Notes under the pieces: generated by a model
The model's database searches: none
What the model was told of the DNA's origin: nothing
The model's input: the letters and a program-made list of their open reading frames with translations, nothing else
IMG/VR virus record: IMGVR_UViG_2529292907_000016
DNA: 42,684 bases
Source of the DNA: a virus
Lineage: Duplodnaviria; Heunggongvirae; Uroviricota; Caudoviricetes
Direction: 5' to 3' (one strand)
Made by a program: the position numbers and the translations under genes
In this document: positions 1-41,818 of the stretch, in pieces
How the letters are laid out: the number at the start of each line of letters is the position of its first letter
Position numbering within the stretch: position 1 is the stretch's first letter

Positions 1-933
1 TCATTCACTCTCTTTCAAACCAGTTTTAACTGTTTGTGGTTTTGGGTAAGGCTGGACTTTGAATAGCTTTGTGTTAAGGCGTTTTCTGGCTCTCTTGTCC
101 AGAAACCGGATGTAACGAAACTGACGGAATTTATGAACACTGGCTCTGTCGATATTAGCCCGCAGATGTTCACCTCGCTGTCCTCCTCGTTTGATTGCAT
201 TCTTGCAAATCTCGTGATACCACTCGCCATCAAGTTCATAGAATGTTGTTTCATGACTGCCTACATAATCAAAATTGCTTGCCTGGTACACGACACCAAG
301 ACAGCCACAACGCTCATCTGCAAACGACTGAACCCACTGCACCTGCGGATAAAGTTGTCTGATTAGTTTGAGCGCGTAACTGATTGCCCTTGATTCGGAG
401 TTTCTCGGCATACAGTCATGCAGCCATAACCGGTTAAGCTCCATATATTCGCGGTTCTGCGTGCCAGTTACGACGCGTGCACCATTGTTTGGATTAAGGG
501 CATAACCCCATTGCATTACGCCAACCAGCTCCCGTTCTGAAAATATGCCCAGATGAAGGTAGGAATTATTTACGAAACGATGGCTGTAATGTTTATTGAC
601 GACGACCAGCCGGGCCAGCCAGCAACTTATTGTCTCAACCCGTAACTCACGGGAGCCATAACCGACGATATTGTCGTTATAGTGAATAAGTTCAGGCGTG
701 CTGATGATACGGGATGTAACTTGCTTTCTGTTCCCCACGACAGGATTTCCTTGTGTATGTGGGGTGCTCTGTGGCGCTCTGAGATGTGATTTGATTGAGG
801 GTTTTACAGCGCGGACATTTAACTTCCAGATAACTGAAGCTGGCTCGTGCCAGTAGCTTGTTACAATGTCGGCACCGTATGTTTCGATACATGGCCGCAT
901 AACCTCCTGCTTTGTTGTTGATATCTTTATCAC
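1..933 (-). CDS. mom: Mom-like DNA modification protein; true start probably near the com stop (~700), not the GTG at 933
   Basis: Last ORF before the prophage right end, overlapping a Com-like zinc-finger ORF in another frame as in Mu com/mom; no canonical start codon seen in frame near com stop. Confidence 0.55.
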
Positions 934-937
934 TCAA
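692..937 (-). CDS. com: Com-like zinc-finger translational activator of mom (likely start at ATG 890-892, MYRNIRC...)
   Basis: Motif [10 protein letters not shown]...EVKCPRCK (C4 zinc finger) resembling Mu Com; overlaps mom 5' region. Confidence 0.65.
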
Positions 938-1030
938 TCGATCGACAAAAACGATCGATTTGATTTATTTAATTGATACAACAAATAACACGAAATGTCA
1001 TTAGCGAAAATTTATGAGTTTGATCACTAA
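936..1030. promoter_or_regulatory. Candidate mom/com regulatory region: three GATC sites and a perfect 9-bp inverted repeat (AATCGATCG / CGATCGATT)
   Basis: GATC at ~940, ~953, ~1022 upstream of com; Mu mom promoter is known to be controlled by Dam methylation of upstream GATC sites. Confidence 0.45.
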
Positions 1031-1148
1031 TTTTAAACGGTGCTGTAACGCATAAGTGCTGAATGATTGTACATTTGAATACCGCAAAGCAAACAAATCA
1101 ACTAATTTATAGAAGTCAATTGGTTAATTGCCAGCGTAAGAGGCTGCT

Positions 1149-1442
1149 ATGGACAATCATGTAACGACGAGAAATCGAAAAATGATTGAAAATGCGGAAA
1201 TCTATAATGATTATTTTTCCGATTATTCAGATGCCTGCAAATACAGTTCGAGTGCGGGAGAGTTCATATGCTTCAACTTTTTTATTAAATCTTATGTTTT
1301 TCCTCCACAGCAAGAAGATGGAGGTGTGCCACCTCCTGAAATCACTTTGCACCGTATAGCCTCCGTCTCAATGATGGAGCAACAGGCTAATGAGCTGTAT
1401 AGCATTCTGGGAACGATTCTACAAAAGCGTGAATCGGACTAA
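1149..1442 (+). CDS. Hypothetical protein (97 aa), AT-rich, divergent from com/mom
   Basis: ORF with RBS-like AAGAGG 7 nt upstream of ATG; low-GC relative to flanks. Confidence 0.4.
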   Translation: MDNHVTTRNRKMIENAEIYNDYFSDYSDACKYSSSAGEFICFNFFIKSYVFPPQQEDGGVPPPEITLHRIASVSMMEQQANELYSILGTILQKRESD

Positions 1443-1609
1443 TGATACCGGTTCATTTGCCTGCCCGGATGGGGAAGCAGGATTGACTGCTCCATAAGCA
1501 GCTATATTTCTGAATACGAAATACTATCCAGCGATTACATATGGCTGGATAGCGGCAAAGATGTTTTCATTAGTGTCAAACCGGCAGAGGACACCACCGG
1601 TTTGTATTG

Positions 1610-40576: not shown

Positions 40577-40778
40577 ATCTAGTAGGCCAAATAACCTGTG
40601 GCTCTACACCTATAGCCCTAGCAATTATCTTTTCACCTTTAGGGTAGGGAACTCGCAAAGCATTACCCAAAGTCCTAGGCTGCAAATTATTTTCCCTTGA
40701 TAAACGTGACAAATTGGTATCGCGTTTTTCTAAGGCTGCCTTTATATCGGCGGAAGACCAATCTTCAATAAGACTCAC
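40533..40778 (-). CDS. ner: Ner-like DNA-binding regulator
   Basis: ...NALRVPYPKGEKIIARAIGVEPQVIWPTRYE resembles Ner/Nlp family; first gene of early operon, overlaps A start. Confidence 0.75.
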   Translation of the reverse strand: MSLIEDWSSADIKAALEKRDTNLSRLSRENNLQPRTLGNALRVPYPKGEKIIARAIGVEPQVIWPTRYERRARRKYVGCND

Positions 40779-40994
40779 AATGGCCCCCTGTGTACTTTCT
40801 ATGGCAAACTTTATTACTCATGTGTGCTACTCTATTGAGTTACTCACTAGTGTATGTTTGATATGTTAGATATTAACTTAGTAAATATCAACTGGTTAAT
40901 TTCAAATTTTTAAATTTGCTCTGTATCTATTTGTTTTTTATTGAGTTATTTTTGAAATAAACCACATAAAGATATAAACAAAAGTTAATATCAA
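40779..40994. promoter_or_regulatory. Divergent early/repressor promoter and operator region
   Basis: AT-rich 216-bp gap between ner (-) and repressor (+). Confidence 0.5.
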
Positions 40995-41513
40995 ATGGAG
41001 TTTGATATGATCCTTGACCAAGAATGGATCCTTGCCAGTGACTTGTTGGGGGTTGGAGGTCTTCCTTCATCTCTGGCTGGGCTTCATAAACGAGCAAAAA
41101 ATGAAGGATGGGAAAAACGTTCGGTAACTACACCTGGTATCAGAGGGAGAGCATTTGCCTACCGTTTAAGCGACTTACCTGCACATGTTGTTTCCATCAT
41201 TACAGGTAGTGCAGAAATAAAACACCAGCCCCCTCAAAAGAACGGTGGCAATAGCGAGTTGCTCGAACTCATCGACACTTTGAGCCAAGAAGAGCAAGAA
41301 TTAGTTATTTACACCTTGAGAAGGAAAGGGGTAGAAAAATTGCTGGAATTCTGCAATCAAGAGAATCAAGAGTTGATCGCTTTAACAGGTATTCGACGCC
41401 TGGCAGCATTGAGCCTTAATAATTTATCAGATCAAAAGGTTAGAGAGATTTTCGAGGGAGATGAAACCAAGGATCATCATTTCAATTTAACCCATAAAGA
41501 AGCCAAAGCGTAA
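40995..41513 (+). CDS. c: Mu c-like repressor
   Basis: Shares N-terminal DNA-binding motif GLPSSLAGLHKRAK with transposase A N-terminus; divergent from ner. Confidence 0.7.
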   Translation: MEFDMILDQEWILASDLLGVGGLPSSLAGLHKRAKNEGWEKRSVTTPGIRGRAFAYRLSDLPAHVVSIITGSAEIKHQPPQKNGGNSELLELIDTLSQEEQELVIYTLRRKGVEKLLEFCNQENQELIALTGIRRLAALSLNNLSDQKVREIFEGDETKDHHFNLTHKEAKA

Positions 41514-41639
41514 CCCCATGAAGCCCAGGCCATGCACTTAGCGAGCACTTTCAACTTGATTTGTGACCAGATCGATATTGATATAAACTTTTTAGCATAA
41601 AAGACATTTTAAGTACTTTTAAAAACGTCCATAAGCAGT

Positions 41640-41818
41640 ATGTGCAGTATCAAATTTGTTGCCGATACCTTAATTTTATACCGGATTTTATTTAATCAGT
41701 ATCAAAACTAAACAACCTCCAGAATCATCGATCACCTGTTTTATTTCAGTATCTTACAGGTGATTTCACCTCCTTTCACTAAAACCCTTGTCGGTATCAA
41801 ATGATTTACCTGGTTACA
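41640..41818. other. Prophage left end with repeated TTTGATAC(C/T)G motifs (candidate transposase binding sites) and 5'-TG terminus
   Basis: Motif copies at ~41645, ~41698, ~41791 plus inverted partial copy ~41661; terminus TGTAACC... on the - strand; host ORF continues from ~41819. Confidence 0.45.

Follow-up and report, generated by a model that had tools for sequence, protein, structure and literature searches.

The DNA analysed here (the window) is a stretch of 42,684 nucleotides (nt) from the viral record IMGVR_UViG_2529292907_000016. It holds a Mu-like prophage of the Sp18 type known from Escherichia coli strains that make Shiga toxin (STEC), together with part of the host gene ycgV in which the prophage sits. 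Our analysis identifies this element as an ordinary, early-stage defective member of the known Sp18-type Mu-like prophages. It was quite likely inactivated by a founding amber mutation in its MuA-like transposase gene, inherited vertically thereafter, and has since undergone early neutral decay with independent hits by insertion sequences (IS). A first-pass annotation, made from the sequence alone, had proposed a cryptic prophage with several independent lesions. This proposal is borne out, since the transposase amber codon and an ISEc49 insertion in the baseplate operon are real and unrelated to each other, and sister strains carry further lesions.

Results

Megablast searches of phage and E. 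coli collections identified the window as a Sp18-type Mu-like prophage of the STEC kind. It is 100% identical to AIFW01000016.1, a contig from the draft genome of E. coli DEC6B (GCA_000249615.2), in two loci jointly covering 8725-42684. Two intact prophages served as references. The first resides in dcyD of E. coli AF39 (NZ_OZ547136.1); its nucleotide identity to the window is 99.96% over 1-8960 and 99.2% over 11727-32305, and it encodes a transposase of 696 amino acids (aa) and a 500-aa sheath and carries no IS. The second, in O157 strain Z869, has the immunity region and early modules as in the window and a 694-aa transposase. Comparison with intact relatives, which the first-pass annotation had suggested as a check, gave a clear picture: when all AF39 and Z869 proteins were searched by tblastn, full-length genes were recovered from the window with only three exceptions. 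About 55 other open reading frames (ORFs) are full-length relative to the intact relatives, most of them identical or near-identical. The features on which the argument rests are the following.

1..41818, minus strand: Sp18-type Mu-like prophage, recognized by its identity to AF39, its gene content and the TGTAACC... end sequence
41819..42684, minus strand: first (5') 866 nt of host ycgV, 100% identical to prophage-free EC416, ycgV being annotated as frameshifted in RefSeq
38468..40552, minus strand: MuA-like transposase gene, a single frame with an amber codon, aligning over residues 1-694 with the intact Z869 protein
39131..39133, minus strand: TAG stop in place of Trp at codon 474 of 694, from alignment with intact 694/696-aa MuA-like relatives
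8961..11726, minus strand: complete ISEc49 (IS66 family), 2766 bp, sharing 99.7% identity with annotated ISEc49 copies from end to end
11310-11639, ~11227-10931 and 9323-10924, minus strand: ISEc49 genes tnpA, tnpB and tnpC, respectively, all open (Pfam TnpB_IS66, DDE_Tnp_IS66, zf-IS66)
8953..8960 (left) and 11727-11734 (right), no strand: 8-bp target-site duplication TACTGCCT, single-copy in AF39
11680..12312, minus strand: gp45/V-like baseplate spike gene fused to the IS, 197 native plus 13 IS-encoded residues giving 210 aa, with the last 7 residues lost
17811..19312, minus strand: tail sheath gene, 1502 nt versus 1503 in relatives, read as a 195-aa 5' fragment and a shifted 3' part
18894..18898, minus strand: run of five A (A5; A6 in relatives), the frameshift site, appearing as T5 on the plus strand

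The nonsense codon reported for the transposase is confirmed as an in-frame TAG that recurs in independent assemblies. The truncated product is 473 aa long, and the C-terminal 221 of 694 residues are gone. In the read-through protein, Pfam places HTH_Tnp_Mu_1 at residues 14-141 and Mu-transpos_C at 531-591, while an integrase-type catalytic core match, with SDNG and NPQGRGIIER motifs, extends over 363-423. The TAG falls after this core and before Mu-transpos_C, which leaves the 473-aa product without the latter domain and the C-terminal tail. When the transposase was compared with solved structures, matches were to MuA domain I-alpha and to retroviral integrase cores only; Pfam boundaries were used because MuA domains II and III could not be mapped residue by residue from these matches. 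In Mu, transpososome catalysis and the interplay with MuB and ClpX depend on the Mu-transpos_C barrel and the C-terminal region. By analogy, a protein that lacks domains II-beta and III should be unable to carry out transposition.

The exact 473-aa and 197-aa fragments were found in 20-24 contigs, including DEC6A, DEC6B, two PacBio NCTC assemblies, one NCBI assembly of 2025 and several Illumina gut metagenomes. Wherever the flank of an amber-allele contig is visible, the prophage lies in ycgV, and no second insertion site was seen for this allele. Conversely, all contigs that hold the ycgV-Mu junction ORF and reach MuA show the 473+197 split, and none has an intact gene. The amber allele is absent from 232 E. 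coli complete-genome records (0/232). Because it is reproduced in PacBio, Illumina-metagenome and recent NCBI assemblies, the amber codon is, on the evidence of these contigs, real and as old as the observable lineage.

The IS66 insertion described for the baseplate operon is likewise confirmed, as a complete ISEc49 present in independent assemblies, but it removes only the last seven codons of the gp45-like gene. The element shows the tnpA-tnpB-tnpC arrangement, the IS66 DDE transposase, the length of ~2.7 kb and the 8-bp target duplication of its family, and AF39 has no ISEc49 at the equivalent site. Its position, within the last seven codons of the gp45-like gene and ~20 nt upstream of the gp46 start, produces no mid-gene split. 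The exact 210-aa fusion protein occurs in 11 contigs, among them DEC6B, an NCTC strain (UGEP01) and Logan contigs, and is missing from NCTC UGFP01 and from the complete E. coli genomes of the collection. ISEc49 occupies the prophage site in DEC6B, NCTC UGEP01 and SRR094137 only, and in none of 5426 complete-genome comparisons. Since both lesions appear in several independent assemblies, the insertion is to be taken as real and unrelated to the amber mutation. By inserting 2.8 kb it cuts gp46, gp47/J, gp48 and the fibre genes off from their operon, and the main effect should be polarity on gp46-gp48 and the tail fibre genes.

The sheath frameshift is a different matter. It is present in the window, where the sheath ORFs 18725-19312 and 17811-18881 lie in different frames, and the sole difference from the intact 1503-nt sheath gene of AF39 is one A missing in GGGGAAAAAAGG. 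As a lesion, however, it is doubtful, as two lineage mates have A6. The PacBio assembly NCTC UGEP01 (contig L025), which has the ycgV site, the amber codon and the IS in common with the window, is identical over 18.9 kb except for A6 and encodes a 500-aa sheath. The Illumina metagenome ERZ810362 carries the amber lineage (L041), and its sheath contig (L057) equals window 18274-22512 except for A6. Matches to A5 versus A6 number 0 versus 10 in IMG/VR and again 0 versus 10 in the JGI metagenomes, and A5 was found in none of 19 E. coli complete genomes. A look-up of the gp37-like protein proved too unspecific to single out lineage mates, its allele being widespread; all contigs read (28/28) have a 500-aa sheath.

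A second homopolymer contraction, A7 to A6 at 38458, is private to the window in comparison with eight lineage mates, and there is no private substitution; the source draft therefore has homopolymer-length discrepancies. This A/T run is intergenic (between transposase and muB) and its contraction has no coding consequence. Among contigs from 2010-11 runs, those with A5 show recurrent under-calling of further homopolymers (17401 in four, 25848 in two). Yet A5 is also present in L008 (ERR14061149), a clean contig with no other indel relative to the window over 20 kb, and in L012, a heavily deleted prophage remnant, for which reason we accept that the site can genuinely slip. Taken together, A5 probably stems from a miscalled homopolymer or from slippage in the very recent past, and the sheath frameshift cannot be counted among the lesions with confidence; if real, it would be the youngest lesion and private to DEC6. 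We had considered it as the oldest lesion, the same 195-aa fragment occurring in Shigella sonnei drafts, and dropped this idea in view of the A6 of the lineage mates and the under-called homopolymers of the 2010-11 contigs. Programmed frameshifting at this site was rejected as well: the RNA beyond the slip site has no folding advantage over shuffled sequence (z = +0.49), which leaves basal slippage only as conceivable.

Sister strains of the ycgV lineage carry lesions of their own. In NCTC UGFP01 and SRR1106271, a 1221-bp IS30-family insertion interrupts muB at 37758/37759 (L037 11306-12526). In DEC6A, an IS1 at window position 35933 in gam is joined directly to treA (L015 14621-15388), and the deletion removes the remainder of the prophage with its cargo genes, as well as the dha genes and the 3' part of ycgV; in SRR094143 the break falls at this same position. 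As a rough estimate, this IS1-linked deletion spans 44 kb. Within the lineage, only 0-3 differences were seen per 8-20 kb compared. The sister-strain lesions support an ongoing neutral erosion after an immobilizing founder mutation.

Several unrelated contigs (L012, L044 and L050) share identical internal deletion junctions (window 17859|12656 and 19828|20567), and one of them carries the A5 sheath allele. These shared junctions suggest a widespread and much more eroded remnant of the Sp18-type Mu-like prophage family in other genomes.

The host gene is indeed interrupted at 41818/41819, as the first-pass annotation had stated; its reading as a sign of decay has to be given up. The target, ycgV, is an autotransporter gene, and a 10-bp tandem duplication at 42539-42558 (CTGCTGATAG twice, followed by CTGCTGATAC) frameshifts it near codon 45. 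The identical duplication allele is found in the prophage-free strains EC416, PD4 and PEC1009. The break in ycgV is the normal outcome of a Mu-type insertion into an already frameshifted pseudogene.

The canonical Mu orientation corresponds to the minus strand, with the c/repressor end of the prophage exactly at 41818 (...GGTTACA|CTCCAG, reverse complement TGTAACC...). Window position 1 is the mom stop codon and 42684 the annotated ycgV start; 128 bp of the mom end of the prophage and the attR junction fall outside the window. In eight loci from a GP46 look-up (L023-L030) and in AF39, the attR end reads ...CGCTATA, beyond which the host flanks are unrelated, with agreement in the first bases of two of them. 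Insertion at many sites with conserved ends and a short duplication is thus what the family displays. Its ends are 5'-TGTAACC...CGCTATA-3', and a 4-bp target duplication is seen in three independent insertions: GGAG in ycgV, TGTA in dcyD and AGAG in an Stx1a phage, for which the depositors also annotate 4 bp. The positions read were window 41812-41823, L025 19050-19070, L003 320-345 and 39390-39405, and L034 590-593 and 39931-39934.

Gene order runs from the repressor (40995-41513, plus strand) through ner, the MuA-like and MuB-like genes, kil, gam, other early genes, mor, lysis and head genes to the contractile tail and baseplate, the invertible fibre segment with a Gin-type invertase, an accessory module and com/mom. 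The element has the hallmarks of a transposable phage, namely a MuA-type DDE transposase (Mu N-terminal DNA-binding domain plus Mu-transpos_C), here interrupted by TAG, and a MuB-type AAA+ protein. According to Pfam, a Mu-type late region is present (Mor, portal_Mu, Mu F, gpT, Gp36/37, sheath/tube, Gp45-48). A Gin-type invertible fibre segment and com/mom were likewise found by Pfam and by inverted repeats. The remaining features of note are these.

37461..38393, minus strand: MuB-like AAA+ ATPase, intact, 310/310 aa, 99.4-99.7% identical to relatives (Pfam AAA_22, Phage-MuB_C)
40995..41513, plus strand: Mu-type repressor, intact (168-aa version starting at 41007), HTH_Tnp_Mu_1, 100% identical to O157 Z869
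40533..40778, minus strand: Ner-like regulator, intact, HTH_35, 100% identical to Z869
5983..8934, minus strand: gp46, baseplate J/gp47, gp48 and tail fibre genes, intact, downstream of the IS, proteins 100% identical to AF39
1..892, minus strand: mom (1-738) and com (692-892), intact, 100% identical to AF39 (Pfam Mom)
4367..6352, no strand: Gin-like serine invertase (4367-4939) and invertible tail-fibre segment with inverted repeats 5010-5158 / 6194-6342
2227..4281, minus strand: predicted NanS-p-like sialate O-acetylesterase, intact, 684 aa (SASA, E = 1.5e-13; DUF6645, E = 7e-68)

The exact repressor sequence occurs in at least 1000 contigs. The fibre segment is asymmetric in that one orientation only puts the Caudo_TAP tail-fibre-assembly gene behind the fibre gene (ORFs 5430-5951, plus strand, and 5983-6864, minus strand); this is not a lesion, because the intact AF39 prophage has the same arrangement. 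The alternative fibre C-terminus (5004-5375, plus strand) is 46% identical to the expressed version. Neither ARAGORN nor Rfam detected a tRNA or a known RNA in the window, and the RefSeq 'tRNA-OTHER' annotated in AF39 and Z869 at the equivalent of ~23740-23819 is unsupported. The C-terminal 31 residues encoded by the small ORF 28388-28636 match the end of the neighbouring Gp27-like protein at 58% identity (28391-28483 versus 28650-28742), a short local duplication.

The accessory module, located at 1610-4281, comprises the esterase with SASA and DUF6645 domains, DUF1378 and DUF826. It is present in 10/10 sampled relatives, which are inserted at different sites, and has been lost from the ycgV locus in DEC6A. 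The exact esterase sequence occurs in at least 1000 contigs, the sources of which name it sialate O-acetylesterase or YjhS. Many NanS-p-type esterases carry an N-terminal DUF1737; this domain was not found in the 684-aa esterase and is present in the lambdoid homologue in L032. G+C content is 0.43 over 738-2226 (com to esterase), 0.57 in the phage body and 0.55 in the esterase gene. Part of the esterase gene (3428-3924) is ~76% identical to other E. coli myophage genes. Gene sets of the SASA+DUF6645/DUF1378/DUF826 kind are known downstream of stx in lambdoid Stx phages; here the module belongs to a Mu-like phage, where the invertase lies on one side of it and com/mom on the other.

Among known systems, the closest are Sp18 of O157:H7 Sakai and the STEC Mu-like phages (for example the Mu-like insert in the Stx1a phage Stx1_JNE122137, LC727895, and PhiFRIK804-3), with 91-94% nucleotide identity over most of the length and the same gene order, terminal sequences and variable insertion sites. 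The window copy differs from them in the transposase amber codon and the ISEc49 in the baseplate operon, and, compared with the O157 copies, it is mosaic in its head and early modules. With the AF39 prophage most structural proteins are 100% identical, whereas the immunity region and a few early modules differ. Relatives were found at many different insertion sites, and the family is described in STEC as variably located and actively transposing (PMC10132054, PMC7430833).

With bacteriophage Mu the element has in common the replicative-transposition set (MuA-like, MuB-like, Ner, c-type repressor, Gam, Kil, Mor), the Mu-type head, the contractile tail, the Gin-type invertible fibre segment, com/mom and an essentially random insertion. 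Nucleotide identity to Mu is only ~70-73% and confined to small patches, and it is in domain I-alpha alone that the transposase matches solved MuA. The esterase/DUF1378/DUF826 module is additional to Mu. The window element ends in TG...TA with an apparent 4-bp duplication, unlike classical Mu, in which the ends are TG...CA and the duplication measures 5 bp.

Discussion

The history that best accounts for these data, and which we consider quite likely, would begin with a Sp18-type Mu-like phage entering ycgV, a gene frameshifted beforehand, in an ancestral E. coli. In the MuA-like transposase, a Trp codon would then have changed to amber, leaving a 473-aa product in which the DDE core and the domains that bind the ends and the operator survive, and the element could presumably no longer replicate by transposition or move. 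The immobile prophage would have been inherited vertically as neutral DNA, gathering independent IS hits in separate sublineages. In the sampled branch, ISEc49 would have landed at the end of the gp45-like gene, altering the spike C-terminus and probably exerting polarity on gp46-gp48 and the fibre genes. The sheath A5 would be a private lesion, the youngest of all, or else a mistake in the assembly of the DEC6B draft. Judged by its sequence, the combination of a transposase amber codon and an IS in the baseplate operon marks a defective prophage, and the truncated transposase predicts that transpositional replication and the formation of infectious particles are lost. Decay is nevertheless at a very early stage, with repressor, Ner, MuB, lysis, head and most tail genes as well as the cargo intact; this intactness reflects little elapsed time and not purifying selection on the cargo. 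K-12 cryptic prophages and the defective pool of O157 Sakai show nonsense mutations, IS insertions and IS-mediated deletions with accessory genes remaining. Compared with these, the window copy is far less eroded, having acquired two or three lesions and, in the strain sampled, no deletion.

Several points weigh against this history. The transposase is only distantly related to MuA, while the loss of transposition is deduced from Mu biochemistry. A host amber suppressor, or a second Mu-like prophage providing MuA, sheath or baseplate proteins in trans, is possible. The IS genes are co-directional with the tail operon, which makes read-through possible, and with so few substitutions the neutrality of the remaining genes is not readable.

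The first-pass annotation had itself raised the possibility that the lesions are artefacts. That they are sequencing or assembly errors of the 2011-12 draft is an explanation with support for the sheath only, where we grant it somewhat better than even chances. The sheath indel lies in an A6 homopolymer, L025 and L057 are identical to the window apart from A6, the DEC6B draft has the private contraction at 38458 and contigs of the same era under-call further runs, while A5 is missing from IMG/VR and the JGI metagenomes. For the amber codon and the IS, the explanation fails on their recurrence in PacBio, Illumina-metagenome and recent NCBI assemblies, and even for the sheath the clean contig L008 and the deleted remnant L012 imply that the A5 allele exists in nature. 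A leaky, still mobilizable prophage is very unlikely. It would depend on read-through or suppression of the amber codon, a -1 slip on G_AAA_AAG in the sheath gene, and read-through of the IS or complementation by another Mu-like prophage. A -1 shift at A5 would indeed recreate the exact wild-type sheath (SKGKKGKE), the c-end and the repressor/Ner region are intact, and some E. coli genomes hold several such prophages. However, it would take the coincidence of three independent events of low efficiency, the slip site has no stimulatory structure downstream (z = +0.49), and the lineage is found at ycgV only, with no second site for the amber allele.

The cargo genes had been singled out in the first-pass annotation as what may be retained, and this suggestion is not supported by our data. 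In its strong form, a domesticated prophage in which the host keeps the cargo (NanS-p-like esterase, Mom/Com, DUF826/DUF1378) while the phage functions rot, it is unlikely. In its favour, the cargo genes are intact, the family of the esterase carries the annotation sialate O-acetylesterase, and the region 738-2226 departs from the phage body in G+C. But the non-cargo genes are, two or three excepted, equally intact, the module is standard equipment of all ten relatives including apparently functional ones, and DEC6A has deleted it. Selective retention of cargo is unsupported where everything is retained; the cargo persists because the insertion is recent and Mu-type prophages do not excise. 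With 0-3 differences per 8-20 kb, divergence in the lineage is far too small for selection to be detected. A last idea, to which we assign a very slim chance, is that the 473-aa fragment, which every member of the ycgV lineage carries with its operator/enhancer-binding and end-binding domains and its DDE core, acts as a dominant-negative inhibitor of incoming Sp18-type Mu phages, i.e. as a truncated-transposase immunity factor; a lesser variant would make the A5 sheath a leaky, slippage-corrected switch. If the fragment acted in this way, fixation of the amber codon would be adaptive and not mere decay. As for the mitomycin C induction proposed earlier, it is a poor fit here, because Mu-type repressors are not classically SOS-inducible.

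Conclusions

A suitable annotation for the element is a defective Sp18-type Mu-like prophage with a NanS-p-like esterase. The case calls for caution in two respects: of the three 'lesions' in this draft genome, one probably reflects an error in a homopolymer, and the presence of intact cargo beside broken phage genes is by itself no indication of selection. With the founding amber mutation as the preferred reading, the ycgV lineage would provide a clean and datable example of the first steps of prophage inactivation, in which one immobilizing point mutation is followed by independent IS hits in sister strains.

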